DNA of 32,000 nucleotides from Candidatus Kuenenia stuttgartensis (lineage in GTDB: Bacteria > Planctomycetota > Brocadiia > Brocadiales > Brocadiaceae): positions 360,001 through 392,000 of the forward strand of contig NZ_LT934425.1 of NCBI RefSeq assembly GCF_900232105.1, given 5' to 3'. Below are positions 8,376-26,101 of this stretch, in pieces. Every line of letters begins with the position of its first letter. The stretch's first letter is position 1. Made by a program: the position numbers and the translations under genes. Below the pieces are notes generated by a model, which was not told the origin of the DNA, did not search any database, and worked only from the letters and a program-made list of their open reading frames with translations.

Positions 8376-10226
8376 TTATGGAATTGCTACCTTTTCAGGG
8401 TTCTGTTGCCTGCGTGTGGTTCTCCTTTCATTCTCCGTAAGAAATTTTTTTCTTAATCGAAATGTTTTAGGAGTAATTTCAACCAGCTCATCGTCTTCAA
8501 TATATTCAAGTGCCATTTCTAGTGAAAATTCTCTGTGCGGAGACAACTTAACGCTTTTCTCTCCGGTAGCCTGTCGGATATTCGTAGCCTTCTTCTCCCT
8601 TATCACGTTAACCACAATATCATTCTGTTCACAATGCTCACCAACTATCATCCCTTCATACACTTCTTCACCGGGTTTAACAAACATTATTCCACGATCA
8701 TGTAAACCCTCCAAAGCGTATGCCGTGGCCTCACCAGCAGCCATAGAAACCAATACGCCCTGCGTCCTGTGCACTATATCTCCTTTGTAAGGTTCGTAAT
8801 CATAAAAATTATGATGCATAACCGCCTCGCCCCGCGTAGAACTCAACAAACGGTTTCTCAAACCGATTAATCCACGCGAAGGCGCCTTAAATTCAAAATG
8901 TGTATATTGTTTTTCCGTCTTCATGCTGACAATTTCACCCTTTCTAGCCCCCAGAAGAGAAATCGCCTGTCCCTCCATTTCTTTTGGCACATCTATAACC
9001 ACATACTCCATCGGTTCCATTCTCTTCCCGTCTATTTCCTTAAAAATTACTTTCGGTTTTGATACCTGCAATTCATATCCTTCCCTGCGCATGTTTTCGA
9101 TTAATATTGAGAGATGTAATAATCCCCTTCCTGAAATGCAAAAAGCATCTGGCGAAGCTGTTTCGTCCACCTTAAGGGCAACGTTTGCACGTAATTCCCT
9201 AAACAATCTCTCCCTCAAATTTCTGCTGGTAACAAATTTTCCGTCCTTACCACAAAACGGAGAATTATTAACGGAAAATACCATGGAAAGGGTCGGTTCA
9301 TCAATATGTATCAACGGCATTGCTTGTGGATTTTCAACAGAAGTAATCGTATCACTTATATCAATATTCTCAATTCCCGTTAATGCTATGATGTCTCCAG
9401 CCATTGCCAACAGCGTTTTTTCCCTTGATAACCCCACAAACGCAAACAGATCAGTAATTTTATGCAAGGATTGTTTTCCTGTCTTATCAATTCTAACAAC
9501 TTGCTGGCCGGTGGTAATTGTGCCGGAAAAAATCCTGCCAATTCCAATCCTGCCGACATAGTCATTATAATCAAGCGATGCTATCTGCATTTGCAATGGG
9601 AATTCAGCGTCATAACATGGTTTTGGAACAAATTGTATAATTGCATCAAGGAGTGGTCTGATATCGCTGCTTTCATCATCAAGCGATAATTTGGCATAGC
9701 CGTTTCGTCCGCTTGCATATACAATTTTAAAATCCAATTGTTCGTCGTTGGCATCAAGGTCCACAAAGAGATCAAACACTTCATTGATTACATCCTGACA
9801 ACGGGCGTCAGGACGGTCTATCTTGTTAATTACAACAAGAGGATTCAGGTTATAACCAAGGGCTTTTCGCAGTACAAACCTGGTCTGAGGCATGACCCCC
9901 TCTGCCGCATCAACCAGCAGCAACACACCATCCGCCATTTTGAGCACCCGCTCCACTTCTCCGCCAAAATCAGCATGTCCTGGCGTATCTATTATATTTA
10001 TTTTCACTCCTTCGTAATTAATAGCAGTATTTTTTGCCAGTATGGTTATACCACGCTCACGCTCAAGGTCATTCGAATCCATGATTCTTTCACTATGCTG
10101 AATCTGCTGATTCACCCTAAACGTACCGCTCTGCTTAAGCAATTGATCAACCAGAGTCGTTTTGCCGTGATCAACATGGGCGATAATAGCTACATTACGA
10201 ACATTATCTCTTACCGTTTTTGCCAT
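8376..10226 (-). CDS. typA: Translational GTPase TypA/BipA
   Basis: G1 [16 protein letters not shown]3 [17 protein letters not shown] and G4 [10 protein letters not shown], with EF-G-like domains downstream. The ORF is open to 10280, but the Met at 10226 is preceded by gaggaaaaga (SD) and gives the usual short N-terminus. Confidence 0.95.
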
Positions 10227-10312: not shown

Positions 10313-10365
10313 ATAGAATAAGATTAACTTTTTATTAAATATACACTATTCCAGATAGATTATTA

Positions 10366-10598
10366 CAGACAATATTTTTTCTGTCAATAAAAATAAACCA
10401 TCCTGAGGATTTAAGTCACACAGTCTTCCTCATTTTTAGGTTCGGGAAATGCGTTCTTAATTGGCAAGCATAGCATTAGCTATTCCCTGAATGACTGCTT
10501 AAAATATCCTTTCTTTTTCTGTTTCCCTCTAATTGAATAATAAGGAACAACACCCCGATAACCTGCCAAAGAAATAAGGATTCAGGGGTTTTCCAGAA
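10366..10598. repeat. 233-bp direct repeat, copy 1 (identical to 11552-11784)
   Basis: Compared base by base by eye, cagacaatattttttctgtcaataaaaataaacc...ggattcaggggttttccagaa is identical in both copies. The offset is 1186 nt. Confidence 0.9.
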
Positions 10599-10760
10599 TA
10601 TATATATATTGTATTGACCATACAAAAAAAAGATGATGAAGTTGGGACATAGTCATGCAATAGTGTTTCGAAACAATATTTTGTATGTTTTGAAAAAGAT
10701 GTCGATTTCAATAACCTGCCCTTCGTATTTATCCTTATATCGAATATTAGAATACACAAA
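10476..10760 (-). pseudogene. Decayed O-antigen ligase paralogue (internal deletion, out of frame)
   Basis: The 3' part is the perfect copy of the last 123 coding nt of the ligase gene. About 10607-10705 matches ligase nt about 12654-12750 with many mismatches (SKHTKYCFETLLHDYVP vs SKNTKYCFETLLHDYVP). The two pieces are joined by a tatatatat filler in a different frame. Confidence 0.75.
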
Positions 10761-10956
10761 GAACTTGAATTTATTATATTTATTCAATATAGTCTTTACT
10801 TACATCTGTTGCTCCCTGGTAATGAATGGAATTGGTGTTTCATTCATTTAATAAGGGTTTACAGCAGATCCACACTCTTCTTTCTTTTTACTCATAGATT
10901 TTACTGAAGAGCCATAAAGTTATACCACGTAAAATTACTTTCACGTAAGAAAACTA

Positions 10957-11289
10957 ATGAATTTGCCTAATGCAGATCAGGCACAAGTAGATCGTAAAAA
11001 AATTACGGAATACTTGTTGTGTACATCACATCCGGATGGGAGCAATAAAGCGGTCTTTTTATCTCAATTTGGTTTCACGCTGGAAAATTGGAGAATATTA
11101 GCAGAATCTTTGCGCAAACATGGGGCAACCTATAATGTGGTAAAAGTCGTTGAATCTGAATATGGCACACGTTATAGTGTCGATGGATTGTTAGAAACAC
11201 CGGATAGCCGCAATCCGTATATAAGGACTGTTTGGATAATAGAAAAAAAGTCTACAACACCAAGATTGATTACTGCACACCCAAAATAG
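10957..11289 (+). CDS. DUF6883-family protein (putative toxin-like half of a two-gene cassette)
   Basis: 110-aa ORF MNLPNADQAQVDRKKITEYLLCTSHPDGSNKAVFLSQFGF...IRTVWIIEKKSTTPRLITAHP. It matches my memory of the DUF6883 pattern (A-V---K---YLL---HP-G--KA-F...W-----------PRL-T--P). Confidence 0.75.
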   Translation: MNLPNADQAQVDRKKITEYLLCTSHPDGSNKAVFLSQFGFTLENWRILAESLRKHGATYNVVKVVESEYGTRYSVDGLLETPDSRNPYIRTVWIIEKKSTTPRLITAHPK

Positions 11290-11298
11290 GAGGAAACC

Positions 11299-11529
11299 AT
11301 GATAAAAGAGCATGACCGAATTGTTTTGTTGAAAGATTTACCGGAGGATGGTTTACAGGCTGGTGATGTCGGTACGGTTATTCACATTCATCGTCAAGGT
11401 GAAGCATTTGAAGTCGAATTTATGACACTTGACGGTGGAACAGTTGCTGTTACAACTTTGCTTTCATCTCAAATACGAGCAGTTAGTAAAAGGGACATAA
11501 CCCATGTTAGAGAGCTTGCTGTCTCTTGA
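11299..11529 (+). CDS. DUF4926-family small protein (partner of the DUF6883 gene)
   Basis: 76-aa ORF MIKEHDRIVLLKDLPEDGLQAGDVGTVIHIHRQGEAFEVEFMTLDGGTVAVTTL. The SD aggagg spans the upstream stop codon (aaaataggaggaaaccatg), with a 9-nt gap. Confidence 0.75.
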   Translation: MIKEHDRIVLLKDLPEDGLQAGDVGTVIHIHRQGEAFEVEFMTLDGGTVAVTTLLSSQIRAVSKRDITHVRELAVS

Positions 11530-11551
11530 TTAAAAAAGGATTTTACTGAAG

Positions 11552-11784
11552 CAGACAATATTTTTTCTGTCAATAAAAATAAACCATCCTGAGGATTTAA
11601 GTCACACAGTCTTCCTCATTTTTAGGTTCGGGAAATGCGTTCTTAATTGGCAAGCATAGCATTAGCTATTCCCTGAATGACTGCTTAAAATATCCTTTCT
11701 TTTTCTGTTTCCCTCTAATTGAATAATAAGGAACAACACCCCGATAACCTGCCAAAGAAATAAGGATTCAGGGGTTTTCCAGAA
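11552..11784. repeat. 233-bp direct repeat, copy 2 (3' UTR plus last 41 codons of the intact ligase gene)
   Basis: Identical to 10366-10598. It covers 11552-11661 (downstream of the stop) and 11662-11784 (coding). Confidence 0.9.
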
Positions 11785-12975
11785 AATATCAGTTAATCCG
11801 TGGGAAATCAGCGAAACAAGACCGGCTGAAACACCTACAAGCAGCATTTTTTCGAATCTATTTTCTGCAATTGATTTTATCGCTTTTATTGTTCTATAAA
11901 ATATTATGGTAAACATCCATAGGAAGATCGCTAATCCAAATATCCCCGTTTCCACCCACATATGCAGTATAATATTATGCGCATGCGAAAGACTTTCAAC
12001 CTTTTGCACTTTTTTCTTCTTAATAGTCTTCGCAGGAATATCCCCAAGAGATTTCTTTTCTTTTTCTCTAATCTCCTTTCTGTATGTTTCATATATATCC
12101 CTGAAGTTTCTTTTTCCTGGCCCGATCCCCAGCAACGGATGATCAAGAATAATCGCAATCGACGCCTTCCAGCACATCAACCTTTCTCCAAGAATCTTGT
12201 TCGACGAAAAGAATTTATCATATTGTGTGATGGTTTTGGCGTGCATGGAATATTTCGATGGCAAAAGCACAAACAATAAAGGACACATAGCAATTATCGC
12301 AATGAGCAAGTACTTTTTTTTCAACATGAACGCTATATAAATCACAGCAACCATATTTGCGAACCAGCTTGCCCTGCTCATCGTCAGAACTATTGCATAT
12401 CCGCTTACAAAAACAAGACATCCAAGCCAAAACCTAACAAATATGCTTCTGTAATAAAAAAACAGACAAATAGCAATCGGCAGGAACAATGAAATATATT
12501 TTGCAATCCTTGAGTGATACTTAAATGTAGCAATTAACCTGTCATCTCTTGCGGCAATTCCCGTATAATACCCATACAAACCATATGCACATACCAGCCC
12601 ACAGGTAATAAGCATTGCCTTTATTATGCGTTTCACTTGTTCAATACTGTGTATTGTATTGACCATACAAAAAAAGATGATGAAGTACGGGACATAGTCG
12701 TGCAGGAGTGTTTCGAAACAATACTTTGTATTTTTTGAAAAAATTGATGCTATTATCAGATAAATAAAAAATACCAGTATGGGTATGTTAAGCGCTGTTT
12801 TCTCAAAGATAATCCGTTTCTCAAGCACCATCTGATACGCCAGGCATCCAACCATGGTCACCAAACACATCATCTTAATGACATCAGCGCCGAAAGGAAA
12901 AAATGTTAAAATAAAAAAATACGTAATAAATGCATACTCTGATACCTGACTTATTTTACTATTTTTCGTATTCAT
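11662..12975 (-). CDS. O-antigen ligase / Wzy_C-family polytopic membrane protein
   Basis: About 10-12 hydrophobic segments. The large loop region has HAHNIILHMWVETGIFGL, typical of the O-antigen ligase family. The ORF is open to a TTG at 13044, but residues 1-23 (LEFFKKLKCNELL...) are encoded by the MITE. The ATG at 12975 (MNTKNSKISQ) is the likely start. Confidence 0.85.
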   Translation of the reverse strand: MNTKNSKISQVSEYAFITYFFILTFFPFGADVIKMMCLVTMVGCLAYQMVLEKRIIFEKTALNIPILVFFIYLIIASIFSKNTKYCFETLLHDYVPYFIIFFCMVNTIHSIEQVKRIIKAMLITCGLVCAYGLYGYYTGIAARDDRLIATFKYHSRIAKYISLFLPIAICLFFYYRSIFVRFWLGCLVFVSGYAIVLTMSRASWFANMVAVIYIAFMLKKKYLLIAIIAMCPLLFVLLPSKYSMHAKTITQYDKFFSSNKILGERLMCWKASIAIILDHPLLGIGPGKRNFRDIYETYRKEIREKEKKSLGDIPAKTIKKKKVQKVESLSHAHNIILHMWVETGIFGLAIFLWMFTIIFYRTIKAIKSIAENRFEKMLLVGVSAGLVSLISHGLTDIFWKTPESLFLWQVIGVLFLIIQLEGNRKRKDILSSHSGNS

Positions 12976-13011
12976 CAATAGTAGTTTTGCCCGCCTATTC
13001 CTTAATAATTC

Positions 13012-13148
13012 GTTACACTTTAGTTTTTTGAAAAATTCCAACAATCAAAAAGTAGGGGCGAAGCATTTGCTGTAAATGGTCATAAATACGTTAATACCCA
13101 AACGGGCAAATGCTTCGCCCCCTGCTTTTTCAAAAAACCAAAGTGTTA
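13012..13148. repeat. MITE-like palindromic element, TIR family A, core type 2
   Basis: gttacactttagttttttgaaaaattccaacaatc...gtaggggcgaagcatttgc-[loop]-gcaaatgcttcgcccc...tttttcaaaaaaccaaagtgtta. It sits inside the operon, between the GT2 stop (13158) and the ligase start. Confidence 0.85.
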
Positions 13149-13157
13149 AAATAATTC

Positions 13158-23452: not shown

Positions 23453-23532
23453 ATTATTATAAAAACATCAACTTATTGAGAAGTTATCAAAAGGACAAAA
23501 GCAATATTTTACACTGTCCCCTGTTCAGCATT
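23453..23532. repeat. Detached duplicate of the recD2 3' end (last 7 codons, stop and 3' UTR)
   Basis: attattataaaaacatcaacttattgagaagttatcaaaaggacaaaagcaatattttacactgtcccctgttcagcatt matches 23827-23917 apart from an 11-nt indel and a few substitutions. The coding part still reads NAEQGTV-stop (gtc to gtg, synonymous). Confidence 0.85.
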
Positions 23533-23826
23533 CGCTCTCGTTCCCAAGCTCCAGCTTGGGAATGTGATTGTTTGAGAAGCTCCGGCTTCGCATGGAAAAA
23601 AGAATAAAACCATGCTATCCATATATTTGAAAATCTATTTCATGCTTCGTTAAATCGTTAAATCTCCCAGTAGGGGGGCAAGGGGGGATGCTAATCCCTT
23701 TAACTTTGAACCGAATATGCTTACCAAAGGGAAGCGAGAGCTTCCAATGCAATTGCGTTCCCAAGCCGGAGCTTGGGAACGAGCGTTTTTGCTTTTTCAA
23801 AAAACTAAAGTGTTACAAAGTTTTAC
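23533..23826. mobile_element. 294-bp composite MITE-like insertion (inverted family-B cores plus one family-A TIR)
   Basis: The left arm cgctctcgttcccaagctccagcttgggaatgtgattgtttgagaagctccggcttcg (23533-23593) pairs with the inverted right arm gggaagcgagagcttccaatgcaattgcgttcccaagccggagcttgggaacgagcg (23729-23785). tttttcaaaaaactaaagtgttac follows at 23793-23816. Confidence 0.7.
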
Positions 23827-23893
23827 ATTATTATAAAAACATCAACTTATTGAAAAGTTACAACTAAACGATCAAAAGGACAAAGGCAATATT

Positions 23894-26101
23894 TTAGACT
23901 GTCCCCTGTTCAGCATTAAATACCTCTACCAGCCTTCTTTTTAAATACGTATATCTTTTACATGGTTTGTCATTTTTTACTGCGATTGCCAATGCCTTTT
24001 TTGTACCTATTAACACCACCAATTTCCTTCCCCTGGTTATTCCTGTATACAAAAGATTTCTTTGCAAGAGCATATAATGTTGCATATGAACAGGCAGTAT
24101 AACAACAGGGTACTCACTCCCCTGGGATTTATGAATCGATACCGCATACGCCAGCACTATTTCATCGAGTTCTTTGTAATCATATACAACCTCCCCTCCG
24201 TCATAATTTACGGTAATTTCCTGATATTCATCATCTATATCAACAATGAACCCTATATCACCATTATATACATCTTTTTCATAGTTATTTACTATTTGCA
24301 TAACCTTATCATGTTTTTTAAATTGTCTTGTGCCTTTTATTAATTCAACAGGAGATTTATTGAGGGCATTTTGAAGGGTGTTATTTAAATGATGTACCCC
24401 CAATACCCCCTTATTCATTGCCGTTAACACCTGGATATCCTTAATAGCATCAAACTGAAATCTGCCGGGAATCCGTTCTTTACATAACGAAACGATTTCG
24501 TTTATTATTTTTTCAGGGTCTTCAAGCTGAATAAAATAAAAATCCTGAAGTCTGTCTTTTTCAAAAGTAAGCACCGGCATATATCCGCTGTTTATCCGAT
24601 GAGCATTCATCACCACAACGCTTTCTTTCGCCTGACGAAAGATCTCATTGAGATGAACGTAAGGCACAACACCAGACGTTATGATATCATTTAAAACATT
24701 TCCCGCCCCTATCGAGGGAAGCTGATTTACATCACCGACGAGGATCAGGGTTGCATCCTTCCGGACAGCCTTCAAAAAATGGTACATAAGTATCGTATCC
24801 ACCATTGATACTTCATCCACGATAATTACATTTGCGTCCAGTGGATTTCTCTCATTTTTCCTGAAACCCCCTTCCTGTGGGTTTATCTCCAATAATCTAT
24901 GAAGCGTTTTCGCCTCATGTCCCGTCATCTCAAACATTCTCTTCGCCGCCCTGCCCGTTGGCGCAGCTAATATTACACTAAACCCTGATTTCTCATAAAT
25001 TCTGATAATTGTTTTTATAATCGTGGTCTTACCCGTACCAGGTCCTCCTGTAATGACAAATACCTTTTTATCTATCGCCCCTTTTACCGCCAGGAGTTGT
25101 TTTTCCGCAAGGTAAATACCAAACTCTTTCTGAACCCAATCAACAGAGGTATCCATACCCATCAGATACATCCGTTTTTCCTTTTGCATCAGGTCATTGA
25201 GCATTTCCGCTATTCCCTTTTCCGATACATAACATTTTGCAAGATATATCGCCTTGTTATTGGCCGTTATTTCATCATTTTCATTACAGTCTTCAATTAC
25301 TATCCTCTTCTCAAACGCAATGGTTCCAAATGCACGGATAATAAGGTCGCGTTCTACCTCAAGCACCTTCCTGCATTCCTCCGTCAATAATTCGTAAGGA
25401 TAGTACACATGGCCTTCGTTTAATAATTTTTTCAGAACATACAAAATGCCCGCTTCAGCACGCAATATTGAGTCCTTCGCAATGCCCATATTTTCAGCAA
25501 TTTTATCTGCGGTAATAAACCCGATACCAAATACTTCCATTGCCAGCCGGTACGGGTTCTCTTTTACAATACGGACAGATTCCCTGCCGTACTGTTTAAA
25601 TATCTTTGCCGCATATGCAGAGCTTACTCCGTTGCTTTGAAGAAAAAGCATTACCTCCTTTACTTCTTTTTGTTCCGTCCATGCGGTTTTGATCATCGCA
25701 ATGCGCTTTTCTCCAATGCCTTCCACCTGTTTTAGCTGTTCTATTGAATGTTCAATAATATCAAGTGAGGCCACTCCAAAGCGGGACACGATTCTTTTTG
25801 CCATTACCGTCCCAATGCCTTTAATAAGCCCTGAACCAAGGTATTTTTCAATACCCTTTGCAGTTGCGGGGGTCACCGGTTCGTAAGAACTCACTTTAAA
25901 TTGTTCTCCATATTTCGGATGACAATACCAATGCCCCCGAAGATTTACTGTTTCGCCTTCAGTAACCGATGCCAGGTTGCCGATAAAGGTAATGACCTCC
26001 TTATGATTATTTACCTTCATTTTGGCAATAGTGTATCCCGTATCTTCGTTGCGATAGGTAATTCTTTCTAATTGCCCCTGAATGACAGATTCTATGGTCA
26101 T
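23894..26101 (-). CDS. recD2: RecD2-type SF1 ATP-dependent DNA helicase (RecD/TraA family)
   Basis: 735-aa ORF with Walker A VITGGPGTGKTT, Walker B IIVDEVSMVD, LVGDVNQLPSIG and SIHKSQGSEYPVVIL. The N-terminal OB/HhH region is typical of RecD2. Confidence 0.95.
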   Translation of the reverse strand: MTIESVIQGQLERITYRNEDTGYTIAKMKVNNHKEVITFIGNLASVTEGETVNLRGHWYCHPKYGEQFKVSSYEPVTPATAKGIEKYLGSGLIKGIGTVMAKRIVSRFGVASLDIIEHSIEQLKQVEGIGEKRIAMIKTAWTEQKEVKEVMLFLQSNGVSSAYAAKIFKQYGRESVRIVKENPYRLAMEVFGIGFITADKIAENMGIAKDSILRAEAGILYVLKKLLNEGHVYYPYELLTEECRKVLEVERDLIIRAFGTIAFEKRIVIEDCNENDEITANNKAIYLAKCYVSEKGIAEMLNDLMQKEKRMYLMGMDTSVDWVQKEFGIYLAEKQLLAVKGAIDKKVFVITGGPGTGKTTIIKTIIRIYEKSGFSVILAAPTGRAAKRMFEMTGHEAKTLHRLLEINPQEGGFRKNERNPLDANVIIVDEVSMVDTILMYHFLKAVRKDATLILVGDVNQLPSIGAGNVLNDIITSGVVPYVHLNEIFRQAKESVVVMNAHRINSGYMPVLTFEKDRLQDFYFIQLEDPEKIINEIVSLCKERIPGRFQFDAIKDIQVLTAMNKGVLGVHHLNNTLQNALNKSPVELIKGTRQFKKHDKVMQIVNNYEKDVYNGDIGFIVDIDDEYQEITVNYDGGEVVYDYKELDEIVLAYAVSIHKSQGSEYPVVILPVHMQHYMLLQRNLLYTGITRGRKLVVLIGTKKALAIAVKNDKPCKRYTYLKRRLVEVFNAEQGTV

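Follow-up and report, generated by a model that had tools for sequence, protein, structure and literature searches.

A duplicated gene terminus beside a ligase gene of Candidatus Kuenenia stuttgartensis encloses a putative integron cassette and probably marks an ancient, fixed rearrangement

Organization of the typA-ligase interval

We examined a perfect direct repeat, and the small segment of DNA that it brackets, between the genes for the GTPase TypA and for an O-antigen ligase-like protein in Candidatus Kuenenia stuttgartensis. The genome (assembly GCF_900232105.1, here G000) consists of one contig of 4,406,153 bp; other genomes are designated by G labels and individual loci by L labels. 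The window, that is, the whole stretch of DNA that was analyzed, covers 32,000 nucleotides (positions 360,001 to 392,000 of contig NZ_LT934425.1), and coordinates are those of the window unless given for G000 or for a locus. Self-comparison of the window confirmed the exact coordinates of a duplication reported in a preliminary description of the sequence: positions 10366-10598 (copy A) and 11552-11784 (copy B) are identical at 233 of 233 nucleotides, and similarity continues to 10603 and 11789 with a single mismatch (237/238). A genome-wide search found exactly two copies of the 233-nt segment in G000. Copy B, which holds the final 123 coding nucleotides of the ligase open reading frame (ORF) and 110 nt downstream of it, as had been described, represents the genuine 3' terminus of the intact ligase gene with the sequence that follows it, and copy A is its duplicate. 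The left flank of copy A represents the ancestral intergenic sequence on the typA side and is continuous with the empty sites of relatives.

The intact ligase gene (11662-13044, minus strand) encodes a Wzy_C 'O-antigen ligase-like' membrane protein (PF04932, 1.1e-24), and its NCBIfam matches all fell below their cut-offs. Public gene calls place its start at 12975, giving a product of 437 aa. A TTG-extended start, running into a miniature inverted-repeat transposable element (MITE) at the 5' end of the gene, is probably spurious. This MITE (13015-13149) is missing in G029, a genome of the sister species, where its flanks overlap by ~12 nt, and can thus be regarded as a species-specific insertion. 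The typA/bipA gene (8376-10226, minus strand; Pfam GTP_EFTU 8e-58, BipA_C 3e-45) lies upstream of the copy A region, on the same strand as the ligase gene; the form in public gene calls has 616 aa, and the exact protein is present in many K. stuttgartiensis assemblies.

On its left side the repeat ends within a strong promoter-like site of the typA strand (10359-10387, minus strand; TTGACA-17-TG-AATAAT, with 11 of 12 consensus positions matched), leaving the -35 element within copy A and the -10 element in the unique left flank. Judging from its sequence, which is kept in the empty sites of the Kuenenia genomes G027 and G028, this site is probably the typA promoter. The right edge lies ~42 codons ahead of the ligase stop. 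Simple insertion of DNA at one of these edges would be expected to harm the typA promoter or the ligase, while the duplication spares both. As a description, the earlier statement that the event regenerates the gene terminus is accurate, and G027 and G028 are the relatives with the empty site.

Contents of the insert

The 948-nt interior contains the DUF6883 and DUF4926 genes and otherwise only non-coding debris. Near copy A lies a 91-nt internal patch of the ligase gene (10607-10697, minus strand, equivalent to 12652-12742 of the intact gene), which matches the genome's own ligase at 84 of 92 positions (91%) with two 1-nt indels and the ligase of G029 at 96.7%. The next segment, 10698-10913, has no similarity to the ligase. 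An earlier view of this region as a decayed ligase copy was correct in that a diverged, ligase-derived piece is present, but that piece is just 91 nt long and the rest is not ligase.

On sequence similarity, we assign 10698-10913 (minus strand) to the left end of an ISL3-family insertion sequence (IS), a fragment rather than a full member. It ends at 10913 in a terminal inverted repeat (GGCTCTTCAGTAAAATC...) and also holds the first ~60 transposase codons in degenerate form. The remnant is 80-85% identical to multi-copy elements of G009, a genome from another genus of the family, in which both inverted repeats are present; the ORFs of these elements match DDE_Tnp_ISL3 (2e-15), and a Zn_ribbon_ISL3 match in them is sub-threshold (E 4.5e-4, 21 bits against a 25.5-bit cut-off). 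The likeness to ISL3 elements of the related genus thus lies in the terminal repeat (GGCTCTTCAG...) and the N-terminal transposase codons. Unlike those elements, the window retains only ~216 nt of the left end, with no transposase, second end or 8-bp target duplication.

The two genes lie on the plus strand, DUF6883 (PF21814) at 10957-11289 and DUF4926 (PF16277) downstream of it at 11299-11529, separated by 9 nt. Pfam matches of 1.7e-37 and 3.5e-22, respectively, bear out the earlier identification of this pair between the repeats. Its sequence characterizes the two-gene unit (10919-11561, plus strand) as an integron-type gene cassette that begins at a G/TTATACC core and has been truncated before its attC site. 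In a family-wide DNA search, window positions 10914/10919-11561 were found at 91-96% nucleotide identity in many other Brocadiaceae genera, while typA in those same genomes is just ~79-83% identical. Among seven such Brocadiaceae loci, the homology starts exactly at G/TTATACC (window 10919) in four (L007, L009, L011 and L013) and 3-5 nt upstream of the core in L008, L010 and L012. Compared with G/TTRRRY, the core deviates at one RRR position.

Further support for a cassette comes from its surroundings in these other genomes. An upstream attC ends before the cassette core in L009 and L013 (e.g., ...AATCGTTCAAGCGGCCTGCGCCGCTTAACTCATT-GTTATAC, with a folding z of -3.9 against shuffles). Downstream, the native cassette continues ~85 nt past the equivalent of window 11561 into an attC, whose start is reached in five loci (L007 and L009-L012) and which is complete in three. 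In L009-L012 this site reads TTATAAC-AAGGCGTTCAACCTGACGCC ... GGCGCAGGTTAACTTGC(T/G)C-GTTA(T/G).., with two bulged bases. The R''/L''/L'/R' symmetry is visible in the attC sequences of the related loci, sites that we take to resemble the classical attC consensus. In the window, no attC-like hairpin follows DUF4926: downstream folding gave a z of -0.16 against shuffles, and homology ends at 11561, with the final 9-10 nt of the cassette overlapping copy B as microhomology. The attC sites were read directly beside intI and in the related loci; a genome-wide regular-expression scan of G000 for attC used too strict a pattern and returned nothing useful.

G000 itself encodes an integron integrase (TIGR02249, 411 bits against a cut-off of 265) at G000 2802206-2803507, 2.4 Mb from the window cassette. 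An IntI of K. stuttgartiensis has already been cited (PMC3607928). The surrounding region, G000 2799900-2803507, is a complete integron with intI, an attI (GTTAGGC) and three or more attC-bearing cassettes, and its cassettes end in GTTATAC and GTTATGA. Between intI and attI lies a palindromic MITE (GTAGGGGCGAAGCATTTGCC...) whose family is also represented at window 13012-13148.

The window unit resembles integron cassettes in that it begins at a G/TTRRRY-type core, is bordered by attC on either side in other Brocadiaceae genomes, is small and 91-96% identical in nucleotide sequence between genera, and resides in a host with IntI, attI and cassettes. Unlike the members of sedentary chromosomal integrons or integrase-less attC clusters, it is without an attC, far from intI, and attached to the neighboring DNA through an IS end on one side and a microhomology on the other. 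For these reasons, the cassette is no longer movable by the integrase and can be described as stranded.

A 2026 preprint places DUF6883 among the BECR-Tox3 RNase toxins and regards DUF4926, conserved downstream of it, as the putative immunity gene (bioRxiv 10.64898/2026.08.28.747851). The cassette is accordingly a putative toxin-immunity pair, consisting of a predicted BECR-Tox3-like RNase and its DUF4926 partner. For both cassette genes, dN/dS was 0.03-0.33 in all comparisons, indicating purifying selection, and we infer that they remain functional. The DUF6883 ORF is truncated in L007 (261 nt) and L012 (234 nt), with DUF4926 full length in both. Loss of the toxin before its partner is the usual order of decay in toxin-antitoxin pairs.

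Junctions of the insert

Junction J1, a (TA)n run at 10599-10606, joins the ligase tail to the internal ligase patch. It amounts to a deletion of ~862 nt of ligase sequence and is identical in G029. In two K. stuttgartiensis assemblies, a ~230-nt MITE with terminal inverted repeats (TAGTGTCTGAACGAAAACTAT...) sits within this (TA)n run (L059 3416-3647, from CP049055.1, and L062). The MITE is missing here from G000, which carries a 100% identical copy at G000 1075999-1076229, and its presence at J1 is a strain-level polymorphism. Junction J2, the join between IS and ligase, lies 3 nt from a CATCAAT 7-mer common to both.

Between the IS end and the cassette core there is an ATAAA spacer of 5 nt. 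The same ATAAAG/TTATACC context precedes the cassette in L008 and L010 (L012 has GAAAG), which suggests that the IS may already have entered an array next to the cassette by the time the two arrived here. A 48-nt copy (92%) of this junction, comprising the IS end, ATAAAG and the cassette start, is found beside a truncated small gene at G000 4131853-4131900 (L080 1254-1301) and is missing from the orthologous place in G029; it may be either a remnant of the donor locus or a copied patch.

At the right junction, native cassettes read ...GTAGACAATAT followed by GGTTAGGC, and the window continues with TTTTTTCTG..., the start of copy B. The empty site reads ...TTACA(A/G)ACAATAT before this point and TTTTTTCTG after it, and in G027 and G028 it has the sequence TTATTACA(A)ACAATATTTTTTCTG. 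Comparison of the empty site with the native cassette therefore places the right join within the shared (C)AGACAATAT, a 9-nt microhomology.

The preliminary description had also noted a 13-nt direct repeat flanking the gene pair. The 13-mer gattttactgaag is indeed exact at 10897-10909 and 11539-11551, but it is not an insertion-type repeat. Its left occurrence lies inside the IS terminal repeat, and its right occurrence is native cassette 3' sequence, which reads GATTTTACTGAAG in K. stuttgartiensis and GATTTTGCTGATG in G029 and other genera; a target-site duplication was rejected on these grounds. Two substitutions in K. stuttgartiensis make the right 13-mer equal to the IS 13-mer 640 nt away, a match that may be due to chance or to micro-conversion.

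Distribution and age of the arrangement

The arrangement is shared with G029 (Candidatus Kuenenia sp. Bin_40, the sister species), a SPAdes metagenome-assembled genome (MAG) that spans both copies and has the same four junctions. Identity between G000 and G029 is uniform, at ~94-95% over typA, the insert, the ligase and the next gene, and their cassettes are sisters in the tree with 85/85 support. These sequence comparisons indicate that the arrangement predates the split of G000 from this sister species, which is ~5% diverged. In G027 and G028, two more distant Kuenenia species (80-85% identical), a single 238-nt segment lies between typA and the ligase. The single-copy interval that the preliminary description had thought worth seeking in related genomes thus exists.

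Exact-protein look-ups found the same gene order on every K. stuttgartiensis contig spanning the region, including the complete genome CP049055.1, and both copies are spanned by seven other public contigs from six assemblies, CP049055.1 among them. Since the structure is common to G029 and to every spanning K. stuttgartiensis contig, we conclude that it is real, old and fixed. The earlier suggestion of an active process is not borne out, as the structure is fixed in every spanning assembly of the species. An empty-allele query in JGI metagenome contigs returned 0 matches, and the filled-junction control matched just one contig, so that this negative carries no weight.

A repeat that is both short and perfectly identical might also arise in assembly, by collapse or chimerism or by polishing that creates the identity. 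Such an artifact is very unlikely, to the point of being negligible. The two-copy structure recurs on the seven public contigs, a second complete genome included, and the sister-species MAG likewise has two copies, which differ slightly from each other. As would be expected of a real repeat, many contigs assembled from short reads terminate precisely at the copy A edge.

Homogenization of the repeat copies

A duplication older than the split between G000 and G029 would be expected, without conversion, to have copies no less diverged from each other than the two species are, which amounts to roughly 12 differences in 233 nt. Copies A and B differ at 0 of 233 positions in G000 (1/238), at 2 of 233 in strain L066 and at 4 of 237 in G029, while the repeats of G000 and G029 differ from each other at 5-12 of ~238 positions, depending on whether BLAST or MAFFT is used for the count. 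At four sites both G000 copies differ from both G029 copies, and in the comparison of these two genomes no site pairs A with A and B with B. Copy B begins with the cassette T in G029 and with the C of copy A in G000; because G029 keeps the cassette base and G000 carries that of copy A, conversion appears to have run from A to B at that end. The 91-nt patch points to the same conclusion from the opposite side: it matches its own ligase at 90 of 91 positions in G029 and at 84 of 92 in G000.

These patterns support repeated homogenization of both copies by gene conversion or unequal exchange. Intrachromosomal exchange of either kind would explain why the copies are identical at 233 of 233 positions despite an age corresponding to ~5% divergence or more. 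A role for gene conversion in homogenizing the 233 bp had been proposed from the window alone, and it gains support from the comparison with relatives, within-genome copies being closer than orthologs in an arrangement older than the split. As in the concerted evolution of tuf genes and rRNA operons, copies within a genome are more alike than orthologs between species, and identity ends abruptly at the edge of homology. Unlike in those systems, the tract is only 233-238 nt long, half of it is non-coding, and one copy is a functionless fragment; for this last reason there is no obvious selection for identity.

Origin of the arrangement

Taken together, the region between typA and the ligase gene probably bears an ancient and now fixed scar of rearrangement, in which a converted duplication encloses a stranded cassette and IS debris. 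In the ancestor common to G000 and its sister species, composite DNA would have been joined into this region by non-site-specific, mostly short-homology joins. The composite piece would have consisted of the 91-nt ligase patch, the ISL3 left end and the adjacent integron cassette, already without its attC. The event would have duplicated 238 nt, made up of the probable typA promoter's -35 half, the region downstream of the ligase, and the final 41 ligase codons with the stop, and owing to this duplication both typA and the ligase would have stayed intact.

As to the route, we tentatively suggest a single replication-associated template switch, a possibility that we hold with less than even confidence. 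It would have produced a short tandem duplication with templated insertions at the junction, consisting of 91 nt from the ligase and ~860 nt of IS and cassette sequence. Such an event needs no deleterious intermediate, and all pieces are collinear. The locus resembles the products of fork stalling and template switching or microhomology-mediated break-induced replication (FoSTeS/MMBIR) in its short tandem duplication, in a junction made up of several collinear pieces, and in the short sequences shared at or near the joins. It differs from them in that the process is here read from an old scar alone and one join holds an untemplated (TA)n run; we know of no demonstration of FoSTeS/MMBIR-type template switching in anammox bacteria.

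Several points weigh against this account. J1 has its extra (TA)n run and no clean microhomology, and the 7-mer shared at J2 does not coincide with the join but lies 3 nt away from it. No intact IS-cassette donor locus was found, only the 48-nt copy at 4.13 Mb that is missing in G029. The inference of conversion rests on a handful of sites in two filled species, and short-read polishing could in principle over-homogenize near-identical repeats, although the agreement of several independent assemblies on the 233-nt identity counters this last concern.

A multi-step history seems rather unlikely to us. It would have the ISL3 element and the cassette land in or beside the ligase gene, or else begin with a larger tandem duplication that took in the ligase region; homology-facilitated illegitimate recombination at AGACAATAT would then have restored or kept an intact ligase, and deletions would later have left only 238 + 91 nt of the first ligase copy and 216 nt of the IS. 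An IS end only 5 nt outside the cassette core does look like a true transposition junction in an array, deletion-type junctions exist in J1 and J2, the (TA)n run of J1 is a MITE target in some strains, and the genome is rich in IS and MITE debris. Such a history nevertheless requires at least four independent events, with intermediates that would disrupt the ligase or the typA promoter, and about 15 Kuenenia assemblies contained no intermediate; nor does a second cassette or IS copy lie to the right of the ligase. Integration of the Campbell type, in which a 1,186-bp circle with one 238-nt segment and the patchwork insert entered by a single homologous crossover in that segment, is highly improbable. 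While such a crossover gives the order repeat-insert-repeat, with repeats identical at first and an empty site in relatives, and while recombination between the repeats would release just such a circle, this merely moves the problem back, since the circle must already hold J1, J2 and J4. Moreover, it would encode no replication or transfer function, and the structure is fixed and inherited vertically with its flanks. Capture at a staggered break by canonical non-homologous end joining was rejected as unlikely, given that Ku and the LigD polymerase domain were not found in the G000 genome.

The preliminary description had likened the locus to an integrative element, with the 233-bp repeats as attL and attR and an att site that copies the ligase 3' end; such an element could also be a decayed, cis-mobilizable island. 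Genomic islands and cis-mobilizable elements at gene 3' ends do leave foreign DNA bracketed by direct repeats that carry the gene end, with the gene intact, and the empty site in G027 and G028 would fit as well. We nonetheless consider site-specific integration extremely improbable, as no recombinase is encoded and the edges are illegitimate joins. An integrase or recombinase gene is present neither between the repeats nor next to them, where typA and the ligase lie. At the right boundary the join is a 9-nt microhomology with native cassette sequence, which goes on in a different way in other genera, and the interior beside copy A consists of the (TA)n run, the ligase patch and IS debris rather than an element arm. 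The sole sign of integrase-type logic, the integron core G/TTATACC, lies inside the insert and is without an attC partner. No presence/absence polymorphism was seen within the species. Compared with known islands, the locus thus has no integrase, element-specific arms or defined crossover core, and its repeat is far longer than typical att cores. The preferred reading of an old scar therefore reveals no new type of mobile element; the locus is a new example of known processes.

Comparable loci in the genome

A similar architecture had been noted at recD2 and taken to suggest a recurrent mechanism. We found it there and at two further loci. At recD2 (23453-23917), ~80 nt comprising the final 24 nt of the gene and downstream sequence are duplicated (23453-23532 and 23827-23917, with an 11-nt indel) around a 294-nt composite MITE (23533-23826), and G029 has an empty site with a single copy. 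A 76-nt duplication of a convergent terminator surrounds a 215-nt MITE at G000 1150511-1150878, where G027 is empty. At G000 3667282-3668618, a ~290-nt duplication of the 3' end of a multihaem cytochrome gene surrounds a hicB-hicA pair, with G029 empty. With the ligase locus, these make four clean cases with empty sites in relatives. The further step to a recurrent, dedicated mechanism is not supported, since other MITE copies lack long flanking repeats. We also considered and rejected long target duplications as an intrinsic trait of the MITE families involved, whose other copies show only background flank similarity. A genome-wide list of nearby two-copy direct repeats consisted mostly of duplicated CRISPR spacers, attC sites of cassette arrays, intragenic repeats and paralogs. 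Two CRISPR arrays with duplicated spacers, at G000 ~93.9 kb and ~2964 kb, appear in it as unique local direct repeats.

The recurrence is sporadic, and survivorship of insertions that spare their neighbors fits it better than a dedicated mechanism. It is unlikely, in our estimation, that Kuenenia has a characteristic acquisition mode in which small inserts such as MITEs and toxin-antitoxin modules arrive with a target duplication of 76-305 nt, typically a gene 3' end with its terminator. If this were true, and a specific template-switching or widely staggered-cut pathway were at work rather than survivorship, it would represent a distinct mode of gene acquisition in which flanking genes are never broken.

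Implications

For genome work, short-read Kuenenia assemblies will break at this repeat, and the anatomy of the interior explains a pattern of pseudo-ligase and ORFs that is otherwise confusing in annotation. The locus is a clean natural case in which gene conversion has kept a non-functional 233-bp fragment identical to the sequence it came from on a species-level time scale. Finally, our comparisons show that integron cassettes circulate among anammox genera of the Brocadiaceae at >90% nucleotide identity, and that a cassette carrying a putative toxin-immunity pair can escape from the integron and settle permanently in the chromosome beside cell-envelope genes.

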